Under the pieces are notes generated by a model. The model searched no databases and was not told the DNA's origin. It saw only the letters and a program-made list of their open reading frames with translations. From Patescibacteria group bacterium (GTDB lineage: Bacteria; Patescibacteriota; Microgenomatia; 0-14-0-10-38-17): DNA of 64,000 bases. Shown here piece after piece: positions 12,412 to 63,213 of this stretch (the stretch's first letter is position 1; the number at the start of each line of letters is the position of its first letter). The stretch covers positions 25,992-89,991 of the forward strand of contig JBMNVW010000003.1 in NCBI GenBank assembly GCA_050947035.1. Reading direction: 5' to 3'. The position numbers were made by a program, and so were the translations under genes.

Positions 12412-12747
12412 GGCCCTTGAAAGAAGGATGGATACTGTAAACCAATATGGTTTTATAGAGGAAAGTCCAGGCAACAGGAAGCACGGTGCCCCAATTAAGG
12501 TTTGGGGGACCCGCCCGTTTTTGGGTGGGGACAGTGAGAGCCACAGAGACGAGTTCTTGCCTTTTTTAAATAAAAGGCAGAGGTGAAACGATCGCTAAAA
12601 AACGATACGCCCGCCCTTGGCGGACGGGGCAATCCTCCCGGTTGCAATCCAGAGTGAAGATGACCGCTTTCGTCATAATCTTCAAGTTTGGAGCGTTAGA
12701 TAGATTTCCATCAAAAACAGAACCTGGCTTATTTTCTTTTAAGGGCC
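12412..12747 (+). ncRNA. rnpB: RNase P RNA (bacterial type A, compact)
   Basis: GAGGAAAGTCCAGGC (CR-I/P4), AGGCAGAGGTGAAACG (GNRA/P14 region), ACAGAACCTGGCTTA (CR-V/P4') and a P1 pairing GGCCCTTGAAAGAA/TTCTTTTAAGGGCC. TGcTATAAT -10 at 12397-12405. Confidence 0.85.
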
Positions 12748-22099: not shown

Positions 22100-23782
22100 A
22101 TGAAAGACTGGCAAGTTAAGTTTAGGCCTCTTGGTCAAACGACCAAAAAGCGTCAAAAAGAAATAATTGATTTTTTGTTAGCTGATCGAGGAATTATGAA
22201 GGAAAAGGATTTTTTTTCTCCTCCTCGTCCGACTAATATTTTGCCCCAAGATGTGGGTATCAATCCTAAGAAGATTGATCAGGCGATTAAAATAATTTTA
22301 GCGACTAAAAAATCGGGTCAGAAAGTTCTAATTTGGGGAGATTATGATGCTGACGGCATTGTCGGCACCAGTCTTCTCTGGGAGGCTTTGTGGAAATCAG
22401 GAATTGAAGCAATTCCTTTTATTCCCGACCGATCGGAGGGTTATGGTCTTAGTTTTTCCTCTTTTAAAAAAATTTATCAAGAAAATCCCGATATTAATTT
22501 AGTAATTACGGTTGACAATGGTATCGTTGCCCACAGTGAGGTTGATAAGATTGCCTCTTTGGGACCAAAAGTTATTATCACTGATCATCATACCAAGGGA
22601 AAAAAACTTCCTTTGGCCAAGACCATTGTTTGGAGTGACCAGGTTTGTGGAGCGACAGTGGCTTGGTTTTTAGCGCGAAAAATAGTCGACCAGGATGATT
22701 ATGGCTTAGATTTAGTTGCCTTAGCGACAGTGGCCGATATGATGCCCCTTTTGGGGCCAAATCGAAGTCTAGTTAAGTTCGGTCTAGACTATTTGGCTAA
22801 AACTGATCGGCCAGGCCTAAAGGCTTTGATGAAGCAAGCCGGAATTGATAGTCGCCAAGGCCTATCAGTCTATCATTTAGGATTTTTGCTTGGGCCCCGG
22901 CTTAATGCCATGGGTCGGCTTTATAATGCTTTGGATTCGGTTCGCCTTCTTTGTACCATCGATTCAGATCGAGCCCAGAAATTAGCCGAAAAATTAGATT
23001 TAGCTAATCGTAAGCGGCAAACCATGACCACCAAGGCCCTAGAGATTGCCAAAAAATCTTTGCCGGAAAAGATTGATCAAGAAAAACTAATTTTTGTTCA
23101 TCATCCCTCTTTTCATCCTGGAATTATTGGCTTAGTGGCTGGAAAGTTAACCGAAAGTTTTTATCGGCCCAGCGTAGTTTTGGCCGAAGAAGATGGCTTT
23201 TGTCGGGCCTCTTGTCGATCGGTTAAGGGTTTTAATATTATCAAGGCCCTAAAAGATCTCGATGGACTAATTGATGTTGGCGGTCACCCTTTGGCCGCCG
23301 GATTTACTATTAAAAAGAAGGATTTGGCTAAAGTAAAGAAACAACTTTTATCTTTGGCCCAAAAAAGGATTAAGGCCAAAGCACTTCAACCAGCCTTGAC
23401 TATTGACGCTAAGGTTAATTTTCCCGATCTTAATTATGGTTTTTGGAAAAAATTGAATCGTTTTGCCCCTTTTGGTCTTGGTAACCCGGAACCGGTTTTT
23501 TACACCTCCCAAGCTATTATTAAAAGTCTAAGGCGGGTGGGGCGAAACGGTGATCATTTGAAATTAATTCTTGATGATAGCCAAACCAAGAAGGTAGAGA
23601 AAACTCCGGCCCAATTTGATATTGGCCAACAATTATTGCCAGGAATTGGTTTTGGTTTAGGTCAGGAAGATCTACAGGTTGGTGATCAGGTTGATTTGGC
23701 CTTTAACCTAATTCTTAATCGCTATCGAGGTCAGGAAAACTTAGAATTGAAAATAAAAGGAATAAAAAAATATGAAGGCTGA
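22100..23782 (+). CDS. recJ: single-stranded-DNA-specific exonuclease RecJ
   Basis: DHH motifs (GDYDADGI, ITDHH), DHHA1 domain GGHPLAAG. Confidence 0.9.
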   Translation: MKDWQVKFRPLGQTTKKRQKEIIDFLLADRGIMKEKDFFSPPRPTNILPQDVGINPKKIDQAIKIILATKKSGQKVLIWGDYDADGIVGTSLLWEALWKSGIEAIPFIPDRSEGYGLSFSSFKKIYQENPDINLVITVDNGIVAHSEVDKIASLGPKVIITDHHTKGKKLPLAKTIVWSDQVCGATVAWFLARKIVDQDDYGLDLVALATVADMMPLLGPNRSLVKFGLDYLAKTDRPGLKALMKQAGIDSRQGLSVYHLGFLLGPRLNAMGRLYNALDSVRLLCTIDSDRAQKLAEKLDLANRKRQTMTTKALEIAKKSLPEKIDQEKLIFVHHPSFHPGIIGLVAGKLTESFYRPSVVLAEEDGFCRASCRSVKGFNIIKALKDLDGLIDVGGHPLAAGFTIKKKDLAKVKKQLLSLAQKRIKAKALQPALTIDAKVNFPDLNYGFWKKLNRFAPFGLGNPEPVFYTSQAIIKSLRRVGRNGDHLKLILDDSQTKKVEKTPAQFDIGQQLLPGIGFGLGQEDLQVGDQVDLAFNLILNRYRGQENLELKIKGIKKYEG

Positions 23783-25277
23783 TAAACAAAAAGAAATTAC
23801 CATTGACCAATTGGTTGAAAAAATAGCCGGTTATCATCCCAAGTCAAATAAGAAGCTAATCGAGCGGGCTTATGATTTTGCCAATCGTTATCATCAGGGC
23901 CAAAAAAGACTTTCTGGTGAACCAGTAATCAACCATAGCTTATCAGTTGCCGATATTGTGGTTGATTGGCGGTTAGATTCGGCCTCAGTCGCGGCCGCCT
24001 TACTACATGACGTGGTCGAAGATACTCCAGCCAAGATCGAGACTATCAAGAAAAAATTTGGTCGAGAAATGGCTAATTTGGTAGATGGTCTAACTAGAGT
24101 TAGTCGGGTAAGATTGCGCGGCTCTAACAATGAACAATTTATCGAAAACTTAAGAAAGATGTTTTTAGCCATGTCACGGGATTTGCGAGTGGTGTTTGTT
24201 AAATTGGCTGATCGTTATCATAATATGCAAACTTTGGAGCATCTTCCGCCCGATAAACAGTTTGGCATTGCCGAAGAGACTTTAGAGGTTTATGCCCCTT
24301 TGGCGGAGCGGTTAGGGATGGGTCGGGCTAAGGGAGTCTTAGAGGACTTGGCCTTTATGTATTGTCACCCGGCCGACTATGAGTGGCTGATTGATTATTC
24401 AGCCTCCTATTATAAGAAAGCGGAGAAGAGAATTAAAAAGTTAAAGAGAACTATTCTTAAAGAGTTGGCTCAAGAAGGGGTTCGAGTCAAGGTCGATGGT
24501 CGAGCCAAACACCTTTACAGCCTGTGGCGGAAGTTATTGCGGCCGGAAAACGAGAAAGATATTAATAATATTCACGACTTAATGGCCCTAAGAATTATAA
24601 CTTCTGATATTAATGAATGTTATTTGGCTCTAGGTTTGGTTCATAAGTTGTGGCGCCCGGTGCCCCATTTGGGAGTTCGAGACTGGATTGCCCAGCCCAA
24701 ACCCAACGGTTATCGATCAATTCATACCAATGTTTTTTTGGGTGATGGTCAAATTATTGAGATTCAAATTAGGACGGAGGAAATGCACGAACAGGCCGAA
24801 CACGGAGCAGCGGCCCATTGGCATTTGGCAGAAATTAAATCTAAAAATAAAATAGACTCTCAAGGAATTGATCAAGGAAAATTTTTTTCTCCAACTCAAA
24901 AAATGGCTTGGGTTAAACAGCTGGCGGCCTGGCAAGATGAAATTATTGATTCGGGTGATTTTATTGCCTCAGTTAAATTTGATGCTCTAAAGCATCGGAT
25001 TTTTGTTTTTTCTCCCAAGGGCGATGCCTTTGATTTGCCTGATGGGGCCACTCCGGTTGATTTTGCCTACAAGATTCACACCAAAATGGGTCATCAGGCT
25101 TGTGGGGCCAAGGTTAATGGTCGGATGGCGAGCTTAGACTATCAGCTTAAAAATGGAGAAATTGTGGAGATTTTACTTGACCGTAACCGAAAAGGACCGG
25201 CTTCTTCTTGGTTGGATTTTGTCAAAACCCGCTTGGCAAAGAGGAAAATTAAATCGGCCCTGAGAACTAGCATCTAG
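23772..25277 (+). CDS. rel: bifunctional (p)ppGpp synthetase/hydrolase, RelA/SpoT family (short form)
   Basis: HD hydrolase domain (HSLSVA..HDVVEDT), synthetase domain (RAKHLYSLWRK, YRSIHT), TGS region. Confidence 0.9.
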   Translation: MKADKQKEITIDQLVEKIAGYHPKSNKKLIERAYDFANRYHQGQKRLSGEPVINHSLSVADIVVDWRLDSASVAAALLHDVVEDTPAKIETIKKKFGREMANLVDGLTRVSRVRLRGSNNEQFIENLRKMFLAMSRDLRVVFVKLADRYHNMQTLEHLPPDKQFGIAEETLEVYAPLAERLGMGRAKGVLEDLAFMYCHPADYEWLIDYSASYYKKAEKRIKKLKRTILKELAQEGVRVKVDGRAKHLYSLWRKLLRPENEKDINNIHDLMALRIITSDINECYLALGLVHKLWRPVPHLGVRDWIAQPKPNGYRSIHTNVFLGDGQIIEIQIRTEEMHEQAEHGAAAHWHLAEIKSKNKIDSQGIDQGKFFSPTQKMAWVKQLAAWQDEIIDSGDFIASVKFDALKHRIFVFSPKGDAFDLPDGATPVDFAYKIHTKMGHQACGAKVNGRMASLDYQLKNGEIVEILLDRNRKGPASSWLDFVKTRLAKRKIKSALRTSI

Positions 25278-25380
25278 TATTTAACATTCAGTATTTAGTA
25301 TCTGGTATTTAGGTTAAAGGTTTAACAGGGGAAAAACTAGATCTTTTTATTTCTTGTCTTGAGATTGCTTTTTTTACTTT

Positions 25381-43579: not shown

Positions 43580-43957
43580 ATGAAGAAAAGAGGAAGAACC
43601 GGGTGTTGGTTTGTTTTTTTGATTTTGTTATTTATTGTTTGCTACGTGTTTATTAACACCTTTTGGCAACCCCTCTCGGAAGGAACGAGGGTAAAAATTA
43701 ACGGCAAGGGTTATTTTAATCCCCTTTGCTGCGGCGATTATCCGTTCGAGAACTGGAGTGGAAGCCAGCGCCGGCAGTGGTGTTGGAACAGAGCCACTCT
43801 AGTGGAAGAAACCATTGGAGTGATTGAGGCCGGAGGGGATTATGAAACCCACTACAGTAGCCGGGGAGGATCGGCCTATAGAGTGGTTTTCACCACTACT
43901 TTAGGTAATCAGAGAACCTTGTGGTTCTCGGTTGATTCTCTAGAAAAGATTGACTAG
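43580..43957 (+). CDS. Cys/Trp-rich membrane-anchored hypothetical protein
   Basis: AGGAGG SD. N-terminal TM. Confidence 0.35.
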   Translation: MKKRGRTGCWFVFLILLFIVCYVFINTFWQPLSEGTRVKINGKGYFNPLCCGDYPFENWSGSQRRQWCWNRATLVEETIGVIEAGGDYETHYSSRGGSAYRVVFTTTLGNQRTLWFSVDSLEKID

Positions 43958-43964
43958 GCTTGTA

Positions 43965-44004
43965 GGGGGTCGTGTTCAAAATTTTGCGTTTTAACGCGAC
44001 CCCC
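43965..44004 (+). terminator. GC-rich hairpin terminator
   Basis: GGGGGTCGTG..CGCGACCCCC, a 10-bp stem, then ATTTTT. Confidence 0.5.
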
Positions 44005-44062
44005 CCAGCCATTTTTCAATTCTTCCTACCGCCCCTTTTCTTTCCCCAAAGCCTTCTTTTGG

Positions 44063-44080
44063 AGAGATCCTGGATCTATC
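44063..44080. repeat. copy of the GATAGATCCTGGATCTATC palindrome family (imperfect left arm)
   Basis: agAGATCCTGGATCTATC. Confidence 0.7.
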
Positions 44081-44202
44081 ACGGCTTATTGTGAGGGTTA
44101 TTTTTGAGGTTCTGGTAAACTCGGCCCAGTTTCAAGCGATCCGGTTTCTTTAGAAATTGATTTTTGTTTCACCAGGATATTTTTTTAGGCTATGGGACTA
44201 AG

Positions 44203-44290
44203 GATAAATACGACACCGTATTTATTAATAAAAGAATAAAAATATTATTTATCGCTTTATCCTGACAAGTAAATACTTTACCGTATTTAG
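44203..44290. promoter_or_regulatory. bipartite palindrome pair: GATAAATACGACACCGTATTTATT, then TAAATACTTTACCGTATTTA 65 nt downstream
   Basis: Same two-site arrangement and spacing as at 61163-61249 and 61800-61887. Confidence 0.6.
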
Positions 44291-44350
44291 AAAGAAGAGT
44301 TTACAAATATCCGCTAACAATTTTCTATCGGAATTTTATTTAATGGTTTT

Positions 44351-44373
44351 AAGTAGCCCCAACCAGATTCGAA
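44351..44373 (-). repeat. 23-bp direct repeat of the tRNA-Glu 3' end (T-loop + acceptor 3' strand + 3 nt), 110 nt downstream of the tRNA
   Basis: AAGTAGCCCCAACCAGATTCGAA is identical at 44351-44373 and 44481-44503. Confidence 0.8.
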
Positions 44374-44483
44374 GATGACACGGACCATTTTCTTGCCGTG
44401 AGGGTTGGTGTAATGACAGCGCGGTTGTTTTTCTTGTTTTGATTGTCAGAATTCTTGACCAGTTCGGATCCGATTGGGCCAAG

Positions 44484-44555
44484 TAGCCCCAACCAGATTC
44501 GAACTGGTATTACTAGGATGAGAACCTAGCGTCCTAACCATTAGACGATGGGGCC
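44484..44555 (-). tRNA. tRNA-Glu (anticodon CUC), CCA not encoded
   Basis: Reverse complement: GGCCCCA-TC-GTC-TAATGGTTAG-GAC-G-CTAGG-TTCTCAT-CCTAG-TAAT-ACCAG-TTCGAAT-CTGGT-TGGGGCT-A. G1-U72 wobble. Confidence 0.8.
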
Positions 44556-44720
44556 TTGAGAAAAATTCCTAATTTTTAATGATTTAAATGGCCTAATTAC
44601 TTTTTTTGAAATTTGGGACTTGGGATTTATTTAGAATAATTAAAAACTATTTTCTTAATTATACTAAACCAGCCCCAATTTTACCAAAAAATCGATTTTT
44701 GACTAATCCCAGATTTTAAT

Positions 44721-44749
44721 TTGACAATTGTCAATAAGAATAATATAAT
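44721..44749 (+). promoter_or_regulatory. perfect consensus sigma70 promoter (TTGACA-17-TATAAT); its -35 lies in the 14-bp palindrome TTGACAATTGTCAA
   Basis: TTGACA 44721-44726, spacer 17, TATAAT 44744-44749, ~110 nt upstream of greA. Confidence 0.5.
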
Positions 44750-60533: not shown

Positions 60534-61046
60534 CTATTTTTTAGAGTCAGGCTCTATTTTTTCTTGCCAATATTTTTGCCAGCGGCGAAATTCGGTTTTA
60601 GACAGAAAGTAGCTTTTTAAAGGGTCATTATTTTTTTGTCGGGAATCATTAAAACAGTTAACTCGGGCGCTGAAATCATTGACAGCCTGGTAAAGAGTTT
60701 GGATTCTTGGCCCGGATAAGGGCTCATTGTTGATAATTTTTTCGTTTCTATTTTCAAAAAATTGGCAGACTTGGCTGGTCAATTCCCTGCTATTGGCTAA
60801 TGTTTCTATTAGGCCTCTAAGAGAAGCCCTCTTCCAAAAACCAACCTGCCCTTTTCGATAATAACGATTGGCCTTAGCAATTCTTTCAGCCAAAAAGGAA
60901 CAAGCTGCCCCCATTTCCTTTTCTTCAAGATTAAGATGTTTTTTAAGGTTTATTGTTTTGGCGATTTTTTTAGAGTGAGCAAGAATATAGTCGGCATAAA
61001 TTTCGAGAAAGGGATTAGACCAGGTTTCTCTTTCTTTTTTAACCAT
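60534..61046 (-). CDS. hypothetical protein
   Basis: ORF only. Divergent from the TrpR-like gene across an operator-bearing intergenic region. Confidence 0.3.
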   Translation of the reverse strand: MVKKERETWSNPFLEIYADYILAHSKKIAKTINLKKHLNLEEKEMGAACSFLAERIAKANRYYRKGQVGFWKRASLRGLIETLANSRELTSQVCQFFENRNEKIINNEPLSGPRIQTLYQAVNDFSARVNCFNDSRQKNNDPLKSYFLSKTEFRRWQKYWQEKIEPDSKK

Positions 61047-61162: not shown

Positions 61163-61249
61163 TTAAATACGGTACCGTATTTAAAAAATTAGGTATCTTT
61201 TTTAAAAAAATGCCGAGATATTAGTATTTAAATACTTTACCGTATTTAA
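61163..61249. promoter_or_regulatory. bipartite palindrome pair: perfect 22-bp palindrome TTAAATACGGTACCGTATTTAA, then variant TTAAATACTTTACCGTATTTAA 65 nt downstream
   Basis: Lies in the divergent promoter region between the 60534 (-) and 61337 (+) genes. Confidence 0.65.
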
Positions 61250-61336
61250 ATAGCAAATGGGGTTGAAAAACTATTTCAGTTTGGGGTAGGATTAAGTTAT
61301 TAATTTTTAGTTTGCCAAATTGGCCAATCTGCCCAA

Positions 61337-61780
61337 GTGACCAAGTTACCCAAAAAACCGTTATCGATAAAAAAGGAAAAAGAAATCTTGGCTAATTTTG
61401 ATCAGTTTTTAGGGGCGATTGATAAAAAAGACGATTGGCAAATAATTTGTGAAAGTCTCTTAACCCCCACCGAAAGGTTAGTTTTGGCCAAAAGACTGCA
61501 AATGGGAATTTTGCTTCTTAAAGGCTATTCTTATCAAAAAATTGAACAAGAACTAGACACCAGCTCTACCACCATTGCCAAAATTGCCAATATTTTTTCT
61601 CGCCAGACCCGATTAGCGGACCTAGTTCATTTCATTTTTCTTTATCCAGAAGAAAATAAACCGCCGAAAGAAAAACTTTCCCCTCATCCTAAAGTAAACC
61701 GGGCCCTAAAAATGATGGGTTTTAAAGAAAAAACTTTTTATGAAAAGTTAGGCCAAAAAGAGAAAGAAAAAAGGGGCTAA
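61337..61780 (+). CDS. TrpR-like/YerC-YecD-family DNA-binding protein
   Basis: LLTPTERLVLAKRLQMGILLLKGYSYQKIEQELDTSSTTIAKIAN HTH region. Confidence 0.5.
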   Translation: MTKLPKKPLSIKKEKEILANFDQFLGAIDKKDDWQIICESLLTPTERLVLAKRLQMGILLLKGYSYQKIEQELDTSSTTIAKIANIFSRQTRLADLVHFIFLYPEENKPPKEKLSPHPKVNRALKMMGFKEKTFYEKLGQKEKEKRG

Positions 61781-61799
61781 ATTTTTAAGAGGAGTTGAA

Positions 61800-61887
61800 G
61801 ATAAATACGGTACCGTATTTATCAGAAAAATAAATGATTTTAAAAAAAGGGCTATGTTTAGGCTTTTAAATACTTTACCGTATTTAA
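61800..61887. promoter_or_regulatory. bipartite palindrome pair: perfect 24-bp palindrome GATAAATACGGTACCGTATTTATC, then TTAAATACTTTACCGTATTTAA 66 nt downstream
   Basis: Immediately upstream of the 61915 gene. Confidence 0.65.
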
Positions 61888-61914: not shown

Positions 61915-63213
61915 ATGAAAAAGCTTTTTTACTTTTTGGTTAGTTTAGGAATATTTTTCTTTGGGGGTGGGGTTTATTGGCCGGTTCGGGCGATTACCTT
62001 ATCGTTGACAAATGTTCCGGAAACAATTACCTTTGATCAAGAGTTTTTGGTCCAAGTTTATTTTGAAATTAATGCCCAAAATACCACCTATTATCTCCGG
62101 CCTTGTTTTTATCCTCAGGGAAGCACAAGATATTTTGGTTGTATTAAGGTGGGGGGAAACTTTATTTGTGACAGCCAGGGGGATAAAACCGCCTATTTAC
62201 CCATCACCACTGATGATCAGGGTATTTGGCAGGGGGAAATACTAGTTCTGGTTGGTCGTGAGGAGACAGGAGAGTTTAATTTTAAAGTTCGCCGCTATAC
62301 GGCTGGAGGCAGTGTTTTTGACTCTGAGTCGGTAGTGGTTAATTTGGTTGCTCCTGTTTTGGAAACAACACCAACACCTTCATCGATCCTCAGTCCAAGC
62401 CCCGTACCAGTTCCGACTGTATCCGGTTCGACGATAACACCAATCGTCTCACCAACACCGGTCCCCACTCCCACTCTGACCTCTTTACCGACCCCGACAC
62501 CGACTCCAACTCCAACATCGCAAAACTCTACTCCTACCAACCCGCCCCAAGATTATAACAACATTTTTCTTAATGAGGTGATGGCTAACCCCAGCGAGGG
62601 GCCAGAATGGGTGGAATTTTATAATGCTAATAGTTTTACTGTTGATTTAGAAAACTGGTTTTTAGATGATTTGGTTGATGGCGGCAGTGCTTGGCAGGAG
62701 TTTTCTCTAAGAATAGCCCCCTACGGTTACGGGGTTGTTAATTTGAGTAAAAATATTTTTAATAATACCGGCGATGAGGTTCGGTTGGTTAACCCCCCTG
62801 GAGAGGAAAAAGACATCTTTTCTTACTCTAAAACGGTGTCTGGTCAAAGCTGGGGCAAGGACGAGGATGGTAGTTGGTGTTTGCAGGAGCCCACCCCTCA
62901 GAAAATTAATTTGACTTGTTTTCCCCCTAACCCAACCATAATGCCGACACCAATAGTTGAAAACCAGACAACTGATCAAGAAGATCAAGAAAAAAGTAAA
63001 ATTTTAGGAAATTATCAACACTATCAAATTAACCAAACCCCTCCGTCTCTTGAAACTTATTTAATAGCAGAAGATCACCCTAAGGAAAAGTTAAGAAAAG
63101 AGCAGACCCCTTTACCTAGGAAAAATTGGCTACCGGACTGGCTATTATTATCCGGTGGGTTGTTAAATTTTGGGGTGGGACTATTAAGGGTTTTTAAAAG
63201 AATGACACCTTAG
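61915..63213 (+). CDS. secreted protein: N-terminal beta-rich domain, Pro/Thr/Ser-rich linker, lamin-tail domain (LTD), C-terminal TM anchor
   Basis: Signal anchor, PTP(S/T) repeats, LTD-like NEVMANPSEGPEWVEFYNANSFTVDLENWFLDD...GDEVRLVN, C-terminal hydrophobic segment plus basic tail. Confidence 0.55.
   Translation: MKKLFYFLVSLGIFFFGGGVYWPVRAITLSLTNVPETITFDQEFLVQVYFEINAQNTTYYLRPCFYPQGSTRYFGCIKVGGNFICDSQGDKTAYLPITTDDQGIWQGEILVLVGREETGEFNFKVRRYTAGGSVFDSESVVVNLVAPVLETTPTPSSILSPSPVPVPTVSGSTITPIVSPTPVPTPTLTSLPTPTPTPTPTSQNSTPTNPPQDYNNIFLNEVMANPSEGPEWVEFYNANSFTVDLENWFLDDLVDGGSAWQEFSLRIAPYGYGVVNLSKNIFNNTGDEVRLVNPPGEEKDIFSYSKTVSGQSWGKDEDGSWCLQEPTPQKINLTCFPPNPTIMPTPIVENQTTDQEDQEKSKILGNYQHYQINQTPPSLETYLIAEDHPKEKLRKEQTPLPRKNWLPDWLLLSGGLLNFGVGLLRVFKRMTP

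Follow-up and report, generated by a model that had tools for sequence, protein, structure and literature searches.

Six exact copies of the palindrome TAAATAC-N6-GTATTTA, arranged as three pairs and all intergenic, lie in the window, the 64-kb stretch of DNA analysed here. We consider it likely, at a probability of about 0.7, that these six boxes are operators for the product of the gene at 61337-61780, a protein of the TrpR/YerC family that would control itself and its neighbours. The gene belongs to a Microgenomates (CPR) bacterium and has a pair of boxes on either side. Protein and boxes are linked by a comparison of homologous loci, in which no gene other than the TrpR-like one stays beside the palindromes throughout, and the palindrome changes with the protein lineage. 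Self-regulating switches are familiar, but a two-sided bracket of this sort is unusual in them. To our knowledge, almost no regulation has been characterised in the CPR/Patescibacteria, which are uncultured and have small genomes, and our literature searches turned up no account of TrpR-like regulators from the CPR or of the sites they use. Within the TrpR family, a large branch enriched in the CPR thereby gains a concrete candidate for a regulator with its operator.

Paired palindromes in the window

The window was scanned for TAAATAC-N6-GTATTTA with up to two mismatches allowed, and 100 shuffles served as controls. The scan returned six sites only, each with no mismatches, while the shuffles gave 0.67 ± 0.78 sites and none of the 100 reached six. 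A preliminary description of this DNA had reported bipartite palindromes at three loci, and all of its sequences were found in their places. When three mismatches were allowed, seven more matches appeared, which is chance level (6.4 expected); weaker or degenerate copies of the box thus show no excess over chance in the 64-kb window. The boxes, and the tract between the boxes of pair 1, are as follows.

44203-44226, no strand: orphan box A3, GATAAATACGACACCGTATTTATT; centre GACACC here, GGTACC in relatives
44270-44289, no strand: orphan box B3, TAAATACTTTACCGTATTTA, 65 nt after A3
61163-61184, no strand: box A1, TTAAATACGGTACCGTATTTAA, perfect 22-bp palindrome with its 20-bp core at 61164-61183
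61198-61210, no strand: T6A7 tract in the middle of the 45-nt spacer of pair 1, from inspection and comparison with relatives
61228-61249, no strand: box B1, TTAAATACTTTACCGTATTTAA, 65 nt after A1
61800-61823, no strand: box A2, GATAAATACGGTACCGTATTTATC, perfect 24-bp palindrome
61866-61887, no strand: box B2, TTAAATACTTTACCGTATTTAA, 65 nt after A2

Measured from start to start, the two boxes of every pair (44205/44270, 61164/61229 and 61802/61867) are exactly 65 nt apart, which corrects the 65-66 nt given at first. Box B does not differ between the three pairs, and all six sites have the same right half, ACCGTATTTA. Box A1 is kept as box A in eight relatives. The arms of box B1 are palindromic as far as 61225-61252, around an asymmetric centre, TTTACC. 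Pairs 1 and 2 lie on either side of the TrpR-like gene, 638 bp apart; the centre of box A2 is 31.5 nt past the stop codon of that gene, and box B2 is 28 nt 5' of the ATG of the LTD gene, a distance that differs among relatives.

The A/T-rich spacers had been called similar. For pairs 1 and 2 this stands, since the two spacers have 23 of 45 positions in common (fixed register) and the T-run/A7 recurs at a matching offset in pair 2 (61838-61848). For the orphan spacer it does not, as only 15 and 19 of the 45 positions agree with the other two spacers. The T/A tract is kept in both the upstream and the downstream pairs of relatives, and may form an intrinsic bend between the two boxes. Neither by eye nor by promoter scan was a promoter common to all three spacers found; a sigma-70-like site occurs in the orphan spacer only.

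Two kinds of element were rejected for the boxes. They are not intrinsic (Rho-independent) terminators: the stems are A/T-rich and weak, with single-stranded DNA folding at -5.4 to -5.6 kcal/mol, no T-run consistent across 20 loci follows the 3' copies, and the terminator scan reported none of the box DNA. Nor do they represent a known structured RNA, as no covariance-model match over the boxes was obtained with Rfam 15 at the gathering score across the whole window, or in the Rfam search of relatives.

The TrpR-like protein, its gene and its neighbours

The genes and the promoter-like sequence around pairs 1 and 2 are listed here.

60534-61046, minus strand: open reading frame of 170 aa, divergent, on the intergenic region of pair 1
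61263-61292, plus strand: TTGAAA-N18-TAGGAT, from the promoter scan; conserved in 8/8 relatives
61337-61780, plus strand: TrpR/YerC-fold helix-turn-helix gene, 147 aa, from Pfam PF01371, PDB profiles and AF2/Foldseek
61915-63213, plus strand: LTD-domain gene, 432 aa, with an N-terminal hydrophobic segment (PF00932, E 3.8e-12)

The 61337 protein matches PF01371 (Trp_repressor) over residues 24-87 with E 5.7e-9 and 36.4 bits (cut-off 27), and PF01371 is present in all of its homologs. Its PDB profile matches are 3KOR, 3FRW, 3G1C and TrpR; among solved structures it is nearest to those of TrpR and of proteins of the YerC/HisR type. The AF2 model has a pLDDT of 78.9, with about 90 over helices 11-106 and a low-confidence C-terminal extension of about 40 aa. 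When this model was searched with Foldseek, the top 27 PDB hits were all TrpR or TrpR-like (3KOR, 2OZ9, 1TRR, 3FRW, 3G1C), with target TM values of 0.64-0.81. The protein is a member of the TrpR/YerC superfamily (PF01371 fold), and the earlier view of a TrpR-like gene bracketed by two instances of the palindrome, pairs 1 and 2, is borne out. The family is large, with 2,792 clusters at E<=1e-10, is CPR-enriched, and has members of typically about 145 aa.

Two more specific assignments were rejected. The protein is not TrpR proper, as the NCBIfam equivalog TIGR01321 gave 26.1 bits, below the cut-off of 67.25, and trp or aro genes flank none of the loci examined. It is also not YerC/YecD (= HisR), for TIGR02531 gave 21.7 bits, below the cut-off of 42.2, the length is 147 aa vs about 100, and there are no his neighbours.

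That the gene at 61915 encodes an LTD protein, as first described, is confirmed by the PF00932 match. This gene is probably a regulated neighbour of the TrpR-like regulator; in the clade with the ACATGC operator, a different operator, an LTD gene is likewise the downstream neighbour (L019, PF00932 E 9e-15). As a predicted target, the LTD surface protein may bear on cell-surface or host-contact functions. The product of the divergent gene at 60534 matched no Pfam family, and single-sequence AF2 of its 170 aa gave a pLDDT of 40. A gene of like size and orientation occurs in L019, L020 and L023, and homology with these ACATGC-clade counterparts is only weakly suggested, with an E of 0.45 in BLASTP and of 0.005, at a probability of 7%, in hhalign.

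TTGAAA-N18-TAGGAT may be the sigma-70 promoter from which the TrpR-like gene is transcribed. In L001 and L013-16 TAGGAT lies 7 nt before a TTG start, and an alternative candidate role for it is to carry the Shine-Dalgarno sequence of an ancestral TTG start. If 61263-61292 is the promoter, the boxes would be centred near -60 and -125, positions typical of activators as much as of looping repressors.

Palindromes on both sides of the gene in homologous loci

A comparison of homolog neighbourhoods had been proposed in the preliminary description. We compared the 150 nt upstream of the TrpR-like gene with the 150 nt downstream in 24 distinct homolog loci, with 209 control genes. In 19 of the 24 loci an exact word of 14-24 nt is common to both flanks, and the word is the palindrome; among the controls a common word of at least 12 nt was seen in only 5 of 209 genes (mean 8.3). 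The two-sided arrangement is absent in 5 of the 24 loci. It is found in every close-clade locus examined and in most distant-clade loci. We know of no TrpR, HisR or other autoregulator for which an operator is kept on both sides of its own gene.

The bracketing palindrome is lineage-specific. It is ATAC-N6-GTAT in the clade of the window, down to 38% identity, and ACATGC-N6-GCATGT, TGTATCA-N6-TGATACA, ATGTTTCGAAACAT, ATGATTCGAATCAT, ATATATCGATATAT, AATGATTTAAATCATT or TATGATAC-N6-GTATCATA in other clades; the Daviesbacteria locus L159 has TATGATACTCTAGTCTATCATA. Between operator clades the recognition helix differs, and the flanking genes differ too; the palindrome thus follows the lineage of the protein and not the neighbour genes. 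L001, L011-L016 and L152, and the orphan pairs of L153-155, all retain the 64-65 bp between boxes A and B. Because the operators are lineage-specific and lie beside the gene, the specificity rules of the family may be readable straight from metagenomes.

These observations bear on the idea that some other factor binds the boxes and that the TrpR-like gene just happens often to be its target or to lie nearby. The link between protein and boxes does come from sequence comparison, which gives the idea some room; but the TrpR-like gene is the sole consistent neighbour, the palindrome follows its lineage, and the boxes have the geometry of TrpR-family operators. We regard a role for another factor as very improbable.

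In distant clades the centre of the upstream palindrome lies 9.5-21.5 nt before the ATG (L029, L030, L033, L036, L159), and in the same five loci the palindrome holds a -10-like TATGAT or TATCAT, which is followed by 6-7 nt and the ATG. In L159 a -35-like TTGCTT is found 18 nt further upstream. The position over a -10-like hexamer points to autorepression. The original suggestion that the palindromes are operators of the adjacent regulator, in a small autoregulated unit, is supported by this overlap along with the 19 brackets, the co-variation with lineage and the 7+6+7 geometry of the sites.

On the other side of the gene, the palindrome centre is 12-45 nt past the TrpR-like stop codon in most loci. 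In L004 and L159 the 3' palindrome is retained although the downstream gene is convergent, and for this reason pair 2 is not explicable solely as an operator of the LTD gene. In the Shapirobacteria STE_48 MAG, which has at least three sites, one lies between convergent ftsZ and tyrS. A plain promoter-operator model is opposed by the 3' copy between convergent genes, and by the orphan and ftsZ/tyrS sites, which lie between 3' ends.

Such positions suit a different function for the bound complex, namely that it acts mainly as a roadblock or insulator which brings about protein-dependent termination and shields against convergent or read-through transcription, with the regulator's own gene fenced on both sides. 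Many of the sites are indeed at gene 3' ends, including those past the TrpR-like stop codon, those between convergent genes in L004, L159 and STE_48, and the orphan pair, which sits between an ORF (43580-43957, plus strand) and the 3' end of a minus-strand tRNA-Glu. Since the boxes are not intrinsic terminators, any stop signal there would need a protein. Upstream sites, however, also occur in divergent intergenic regions without a gene end (window pair 1, L008, L019, L020, L162), and the overlap of the distant-clade upstream site with the gene's own -10-like element is the mark of classical repression. Further, we know of no TrpR-family protein that works as a roadblock. We consider termination by the bound complex an unlikely main function. 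About equally doubtful is a broader proposal, that CPR TrpR-like proteins, with their roughly 2,800 sequence clusters, are boundary factors rather than metabolite-sensing repressors, with private palindromes that fence transcription in packed genomes and arms that are mirrored for hairpin or cruciform formation. The palindromes would then mark both ends of the regulator's own gene and a few further intergenic spots, among them ones at convergent genes and at tRNA genes.

Mirrored arms and variable centres

Arm positions outside the core vary between sites yet stay self-complementary. Complementary flank positions numbered 202, vs 142.7 ± 7.1 in permutations, a statistic that is inflated because orthologous sites are not independent. 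The mirrored outer arms in the window are TT..AA vs GA..TC; in L004 they are TTTTGGAC..GTCCAAAA vs ATTAAAAC..GTTTTAAT; and in L008 they are GCACCG..CGGTGC, around the centre GGCAGC. A dimer that reads duplex DNA does not by itself require self-complementary outer arms. Templated quasi-palindrome correction during replication could mirror flanks without any function.

The arms also invite the view that the boxes work as hairpins, either as RNA stem-loops at the 5' and 3' ends of the regulator mRNA (stability, processing or termination) or as extruded or single-stranded DNA. The outer arms co-vary in a way that keeps self-complementarity, and the centre hexamer is often asymmetric and loop-like, with only 13 of the 38 distinct centres palindromic. 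But the strand asymmetry expected of wobble pairing in a sense RNA is missing from the arms (18 G:T vs 16 A:C mismatches), the stems are weak, and T-runs do not follow the 3' copies. Some extended arms, those of L025 and L026, are better read as extra half-sites at 8-bp spacing, as in TrpR tandem binding. Moreover, the distant-clade upstream palindrome, which lies over the -10-like element of an apparently leaderless gene, would not be transcribed. A hairpin function is, in our judgement, improbable. Changes in the outer arms of box A are not matched by changes in those of box B, and so there is no attC-like A:B pairing.

The orphan pair at 44.2 kb

The orphan pair is flanked by the plus-strand ORF and the tRNA-Glu unit named above, and its spacer holds one promoter-like sequence.

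44268-44241, minus strand: TTGTCA-16-AATATT, promoter-like, from the promoter scan

As first described, the pair has no ORF downstream: no plus-strand ORF of at least 30 aa was found 3' of it. Two related genomes (L153, L154, L155) have the boxes at the orthologous place with their spacing unaltered, while the outer flanks diverge. Because exact spacing and place are kept in these two relatives, the orphan is not the relic of a lost target gene, which had been one of the meanings suggested for it; it may rather be a further conserved target of the 61337 protein. An Rfam search of 43950-44600 at E<=10 returned tRNA-Glu only. A second, intron-bearing tRNA beside tRNA-Glu was rejected, as it had no ARAGORN support with introns allowed. 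Also rejected was a conserved minus-strand protein gene with its start beside the pair, a call made in L154: from genome to genome the similarity shifts between reading frames, and the window counterpart has stops in all three.

Contigs were scanned with TAAATACNNNACCGTATTTA, and among the matches listed (at least 116 stretches) most were chance matches and copies of an unrelated Desulfobacterales element, which is multi-copy and has as its subterminal hairpin a near-identical 20-mer that fits the box pattern by chance. The resemblance recalls a mobile or selfish cassette, in which the palindromes would be the ends, as terminal inverted repeats or recombination sites, of a unit containing the TrpR-like gene and the orphan would be a solo end left after excision. 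The gene and its bracket do occur in different neighbourhoods in different clades, palindromes at its two ends amount in form to inverted repeats, and a solo pair lies elsewhere in the window. Against this, the bracketed product is a 147-aa helix-turn-helix protein with no transposase, integrase or HUH domain; synteny is stable among relatives of 75-95% identity; and copy number is low, with three pairs in 64 kb and degenerate copies at chance level. The likeness of the orphan spacer to the others (15 and 19 of 45) is no more than A/T-rich sequence gives, the orphan is kept in place in two relatives, and attC-like pairing of the outer arms is lacking. A cassette of this kind is the least probable of the readings that we considered.

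REP/RAYT (REPtron) and IS200/IS605 hairpins are the known elements of this type. Like the boxes, they bracket a gene with cognate short palindromes and have copies elsewhere, and their arms are self-complementary with a loop-like centre; unlike them, the window arrangement has no HUH/Y1 transposase, is of very low copy, shows stable synteny and brackets a TrpR-fold protein. The boxes were rejected as elements of either kind, given the TrpR-fold protein and the presence of just three pairs in 64 kb.

Proposed mode of action and comparison with known systems

If, as we prefer, the six boxes are operators of the 61337 protein, one helix-turn-helix dimer would bind each 20-bp palindrome, with the arms TAAATAC/GTATTTA in successive major grooves and the 6-bp centre not read directly. 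The boxes of a pair are 64-65 bp, or about six helical turns, apart, with the T/A tract between them, and this phasing would put two bound dimers on the same face of the DNA, able to bind cooperatively. Pair 1 would act from just upstream of the regulator's promoter region, common with the divergent 170-aa gene, and pair 2 from just past the regulator's stop codon, ahead of the LTD gene. The regulator would control its own synthesis and its neighbours, most likely by repression. A copy at each end of the gene would most likely serve contact between the upstream and downstream complexes, with the formation of a DNA loop of about 640 bp, and binding probably responds to a small molecule, as it does for TrpR and HisR. 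The data show the sites with their spacing and their excess over chance, the fold and family of the protein, the family-wide bracket of lineage-specific palindromes and the conservation of the orphan pair; binding, the dimer or tetramer stoichiometry, repression over activation, looping and the ligand are features that we infer. The two-sided placement points to control by looping or roadblock; should the boxes mediate only ordinary autoregulation, they would add usefully, though modestly, to what is known of such switches.

Previous work gave 20-bp palindromic operators for both HisR (YerC), cacTTTA-N6-TAAAgtg, and TrpR, TGTAcTnGTnnACnAgTACA; about half of hisR genes are autoregulated, with a site upstream of the own gene, and HisR and TrpR are reported to be <100 aa long (PMC9413887). 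The window protein has the PF01371 fold of HisR, the Firmicutes histidine repressor (3KOR, 3FRW and 3G1C are of the HisR type), and its predicted operators likewise have 7-bp arms and a 6-bp centre in a 20-bp palindrome, a lineage-specific consensus and a site upstream of the own gene. It differs in being about 45 aa longer and below the YerC/YecD cut-off. Its gene lies beside the LTD gene and the 170-aa gene, not beside histidine genes, and its predicted operators come in pairs, with 65 bp from box to box, both before and after the gene.

Several TrpR dimers can bind side by side in tandem (PDB 1TRR title), and the nested half-sites of L025 and L026 recall this arrangement. The fold is again similar to that of E. 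coli TrpR (Foldseek TM up to 0.8), itself a dimeric, autoregulated helix-turn-helix repressor with palindromic operators. The window protein differs from TrpR in its motif, in having no trp or aro genes nearby, and in scoring below the TIGR01321 cut-off. TrpR has one operator region that overlaps each promoter and no copy behind the gene, unlike the window.

For two operators that act together, the precedents are GalR (OE/OI), LacI (O1/O2/O3) and DeoR, where identical operators on either side of a promoter or gene are bridged by an oligomer, as might happen by looping in the window. The upstream gal operator is centred at -60.5, which would be the position of box B1 if TTGAAA/TAGGAT is the promoter. 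The folds of these proteins are unrelated, and their second operator is close to where the transcription unit begins or just within it, whereas that of the window comes after the stop codon of the repressor gene itself.

Paired boxes and the adjacent genes

The 20-bp palindrome TAAATAC-N6-GTATTTA occurs at six sites in the window, all of them exact in a search that tolerated up to two mismatches. Dinucleotide-preserving shuffles of the window (n = 100) gave 0.67 ± 0.78 matches, and six were reached in 0 of the 100. A three-mismatch search of the window added seven matches versus 6.4 expected, i.e., chance level. Given six exact matches and zero excess of weaker ones, the motif is sharply defined and rare. 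All six boxes are intergenic. The boxes, with their start positions, and the neighboring genes are:

44205 and 44270, orphan pair, the 44-kb copy
61164 and 61229, pair 1, upstream of the TrpR-like gene
61802 and 61867, pair 2, between the TrpR-like and LTD genes
60534-61046 (-), divergent gene without known family
61337-61780 (+), TrpR-like gene, PF01371 (Trp_repressor)
61915-63213 (+), LTD gene, LTD domain

As the preliminary description had it, the boxes form three pairs, with positions and sequences where it placed them. Box A is a perfect palindrome centered on GGTACC, but on GACACC at 44 kb; box B is TAAATACTTTACCGTATTTA in all three pairs. The spacing, described earlier as 65-66 nt, is indeed constant, the figure being exactly 65 nt from start to start in every pair. 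The 45-nt spacers, which had been called similar, are not conserved over their full length (at fixed register, 23, 15 and 19 of the 45 positions agree), and what stands of the likeness is a T-run followed by A7 at identical offset in pairs 1 and 2. Three direct copies of the right half-site, (A)GTATTTA, lie with a 14-15-nt period at 25270-25305, directly after the stop of ORF 23772-25277.

The TrpR-like protein

The product of 61337-61780 had been called a TrpR/YerC-like regulator, and both its PF01371 match and its structural matches bear this out. A profile of the family retrieved the YerC/HisR-type structures 3KOR, 3FRW and 3G1C, then E. coli TrpR. An AlphaFold model, made with an alignment of 71 sequences, was confident over helices 11-106, the C-terminal ~40 residues being a low-confidence extension, and each of its best 27 PDB matches was a TrpR or TrpR-like chain. 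Its fold and operator type place the protein in the TrpR/YerC superfamily. It is neither TrpR proper nor HisR/YerC, because it missed the NCBIfam cut-off for TrpR proper as well as that for YerC/YecD, differs in size, and is without nearby amino-acid genes. A full HMMER scan gave 2,792 clusters at E ≤ 1e-10, the top-scoring members being mostly 140-156 aa; homologs with a named source were from Daviesbacteria, Levybacteria and Roizmanbacteria. The nearest protein, from ‘Microgenomates bacterium 39_6’, is 95% identical, and the window therefore derives from a CPR bacterium. A literature search on CPR members of the TrpR family found nothing. The window also encodes a bacterial class A RNase P RNA at 12416-12747 (+) (Rfam RF00010, 119 bits).

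In a comparative and experimental study, TrpR-family regulators were found to bind 20-bp palindromes, namely cacTTTA-N6-TAAAgtg for HisR, the product of B. subtilis yerC, and TGTAcTnGTnnACnAgTACA for TrpR; the operator consensus was lineage-specific, and about half of hisR genes had a site upstream of themselves (PMC9413887). The window box has the same 7+6+7 geometry.

Palindromes around homologous genes

The surroundings of homologs were taken from assemblies and metagenomes, the L numbers denoting fetched loci or matching contigs. Close-clade loci (L001, L011-L016; 73-95% identity) have boxes of the TAAATAC-N6-GTATTTA form in pairs 64-65 nt apart. These boxes lie upstream of the TrpR-like gene at every locus and downstream wherever the contig runs past the gene, the contigs of L015 and L016 ending within it. 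The center hexamer varies by genome (TATATA, TATATC, TCTAGA and others). A core, ATAC-N6-GTAT, is retained on both sides of the gene in L004 (51% identity) and L008 (38%), and in L010 (44%) it is found three times upstream and not downstream. More remote relatives have other palindromes in an unchanged two-sided layout.

Table. Palindromes in more remote relatives
ACATGC-N6-GCATGT: L019, L020, L023
ATGATTCGAATCAT: L025
ATGTTTCGAAACAT: L026, L028
ATATATCGATATAT: L030
TGTATCA-N6-TGATACA: L031
ATATGGCGATATATCGCCATAT: L034
TATGATACTCTAGTCTATCATA: L159, Daviesbacteria contig
AATGATTTAAATCATT: L162, Levybacteria contig

As a blind measure, we took the longest exact word, in either orientation, common to the two 150-nt flanks of a gene, upstream and downstream. 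The shared word was 14-24 nt long in 19 of 24 distinct TrpR-like genes (mean 17.6), whereas among 209 other genes at these loci (mean 8.3) just 5 had one of at least 12 nt. Comparison of homolog neighborhoods, a check proposed in the preliminary description, thus came out in favor of its operators. Neighboring genes vary by clade (rhamnose genes, polysaccharide deacetylase, cation ATPase, DUF2207 and others), the TrpR-like gene is the palindromes’ sole constant partner across clades, and the recognition helix differs among clades with different palindromes. Binding of the palindrome by the protein would give such a pattern. That a different protein binds the boxes is unlikely, given that the palindrome co-varies with the TrpR-like lineage. 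It is likewise unlikely that gene and palindromes travel together as a mobile cassette: no recombinase is present, gene order is stable, copies are few, and the orphan pair has been conserved at its position. The earlier proposal that the palindromes are operators of the adjacent regulator is strengthened by the co-variation, with binding itself predicted: the boxes are very probably sites of the TrpR-like protein, and to the full statement, which includes autoregulation, we give a probability of about 0.7.

Two other repeats were seen. A dispersed, hairpin-rich element of ~135 nt, TTTCAAGATAGGTGAAAACCACGGC...GGATGAAACCGATA...GGCGAAACG...CCACGGGCTTTGCCCGTGGGAATC, occurs in related genomes (L012 2225-2360; L014 4477-4610; L015 1032-1187; L005 193-328) and not in the window. 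It has apparent compensatory changes in three hairpins and no Rfam match; three of the four copies lie within ~100 nt of boxes, and that in L014 interrupts the downstream pair. In Desulfobacterales MAGs, a multi-copy repeat (among the matches listed, L043, L047, L059, L063, L067, L073, L074 and at least ~30 more) has TAAATACGTNACCGTATTTA as its subterminal hairpin, with a conserved left flank, ctttaaacttttgcatacatagaatgaataaaccaag, and an end ~17 nt past the hairpin, ...gtacttag; this repeat is unrelated to the CPR boxes.

Mirrored arms

Beyond the conserved core, arm positions vary by site and keep their self-complementarity: TT..AA versus GA..TC in the window, CTACTTAA..TTAAGTAG, CTAACATAC..GTATGTTAG and TCTCAAAA..TTTTGAGA in relatives, and TTTTGGAC..GTCCAAAA versus ATTAAAAC..GTTTTAAT in L004. 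Over 38 distinct sites, complementary flank positions numbered 202 versus 142.7 ± 7.1 with right flanks permuted, a figure inflated by orthologous sites; only 13 of these sites have a palindromic center hexamer. The pattern looks like a stem-and-loop constraint. Action as an RNA hairpin is argued against by the sense strand, which has no excess of G:T over A:C mismatches (18 versus 16), by the weakness of the hairpins, and by the upstream copies in distant clades, which would not be transcribed. For some long arms (L025, L026), additional half-sites spaced 8 bp apart are the better reading. Mirrored flanks could also arise when quasi-palindromes undergo templated correction during replication. 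Pairing of box A with box B in the manner of attC was excluded because their outer arms do not match within a pair.

The two-sided layout and control of the regulator

In most loci the 3' palindrome is centered 12-45 nt past the stop codon. Where a co-directional gene follows, the palindrome precedes it by 25-70 nt and can serve as its putative operator; it is nevertheless kept in L004 and L159, where the following gene is convergent. With A/T-rich stems, a folding energy of -5.4 to -5.6 kcal/mol as single-stranded DNA, and no consistent T-run after it, the palindrome is not an intrinsic terminator. Because the 3' copy is kept at convergent genes and is not a terminator, we take the bracket to be a property of the regulator’s own control. 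Its most likely reason would be contact between the two operator sets, 638 bp apart in the window, though such looping is clearly less probable than autoregulation; a roadblock or insulating role of the bound complex is the serious alternative.

In several distant clades the upstream palindrome is centered 9.5-21.5 nt before the ATG, and its right arm holds a -10-like TATGAT or TATCAT, followed after 6-7 nt by the ATG; in L159, TTGCTT lies 18 nt upstream. These consensus matches point to a leaderless gene whose core promoter would be covered by the operator, an arrangement that would give autorepression. For the window clade the sign of regulation is harder to read. All eight relatives have a block after box B, GGGGTTGAAAAA...GGGGTAGGAT, that a promoter scan reads as TTGAAA-18-TAGGAT (window 61263-61292); if this is a promoter, boxes B1 and A1 are centered near -60 and -125. 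Since TAGGAT is 7 nt ahead of a TTG start in L001 and L013-16, it may act as -10 in a leaderless transcript or contain the Shine-Dalgarno sequence, and either sign is therefore possible. Relative to these loci, the window has a 36-nt insertion at 61300-61336, between the conserved TAGGAT and the GTG start, made of ~9-nt units resembling the gene start (TTGCCAAAT TGGCCAATC TGCCCAAG TGACCAAG), as if slippage had shifted the start codon.

In the window, 28 nt separate the end of box B2 from the LTD start; in relatives this distance varies. The clade with ACATGC-N6-GCATGT also has a downstream LTD gene (L019, PF00932, E 9e-15), and the regulator-LTD pairing thus predates the present operator sequence; divergent genes at the equivalent place in that clade may be homologous to the window’s.

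The window system, so read, works like an autoregulated TrpR-family repressor. To our knowledge, three of its features have no counterpart in that family: retention of an operator on each side of the regulator’s own gene, seen in 19 of 24 examined relatives; box pairs with a constant spacing of 64-65 bp and an intervening T/A tract, in the window clade; and the mirrored evolution of the arms.

The orphan pair and further sites

For the orphan pair, control of a non-coding RNA or a lost target gene had been suggested. Against the latter, it is conserved at the orthologous place, with the 65-nt register and a GGTACC box A center, in two relatives, NPIE01000344.1 (GreA 98% identical) and Microgenomates bacterium 39_6 (GreA 87%); it is not in relatives with GreA at 74-75%. 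Boxes and spacer are near-invariant across the three genomes while farther flanks diverge, so the pair is being maintained and is not debris. Its neighbors are ORF 43580-43957 (+) on one side and, on the other, the 3' end of a (-) unit of tRNA-Glu and a conserved 137-nt tRNA-like element. A sigma-70-like TTGTCA-16-AATATT is found on the (-) strand within the spacer; were it a promoter, box B would border the -35 on its upstream side and box A would come just past the start. A (-) ORF predicted here by a gene caller in one relative was rejected, its reading frame not being conserved.

The 137-nt element (44346-44482, -) is directly 3' of tRNA-Glu(ctc) (44483-44555, -), whose T-arm and acceptor end are repeated in its final 20 nt, TTCGAATCTGGTTGGGGCTA. 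Conserved in L153 and L154, relatives of the orphan region, it was not recognized as a tRNA by ARAGORN (introns allowed) or Rfam, and could be a tRNA-like RNA, a decayed tRNA copy, or an att-like duplication. A non-coding stretch at 43960-44110, ~90% conserved in three relatives, one of them without boxes, has a G+C-rich hairpin with a T-run, likely the terminator of ORF 43580-43957, then CCAGCCATTTTTCAATTCTTCCTACCGCC...GGAGAGATCCTGGATCTAT; overlapping this stretch is a 38-aa ORF (43896-44012, -) preceded at 9 nt by AGGAAG. At 44721-44749 (+), 112 nt upstream of greA, the sigma-70 consensus is matched perfectly (TTGACA-17-TATAAT), and the organism therefore uses canonical promoters.

In the Shapirobacteria MAG JAQVIV01, box-like sites are present on at least three contigs (L106 1459-1478; L152 6176-6195 and 6240-6259; L138 3940-3959), each without a nearby TrpR-like gene. 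One is between convergent ftsZ and tyrS, and a pair with 64-nt spacing is flanked by an M29 peptidase gene and tRNA-Lys. Further targets thus seem usual in this lineage.
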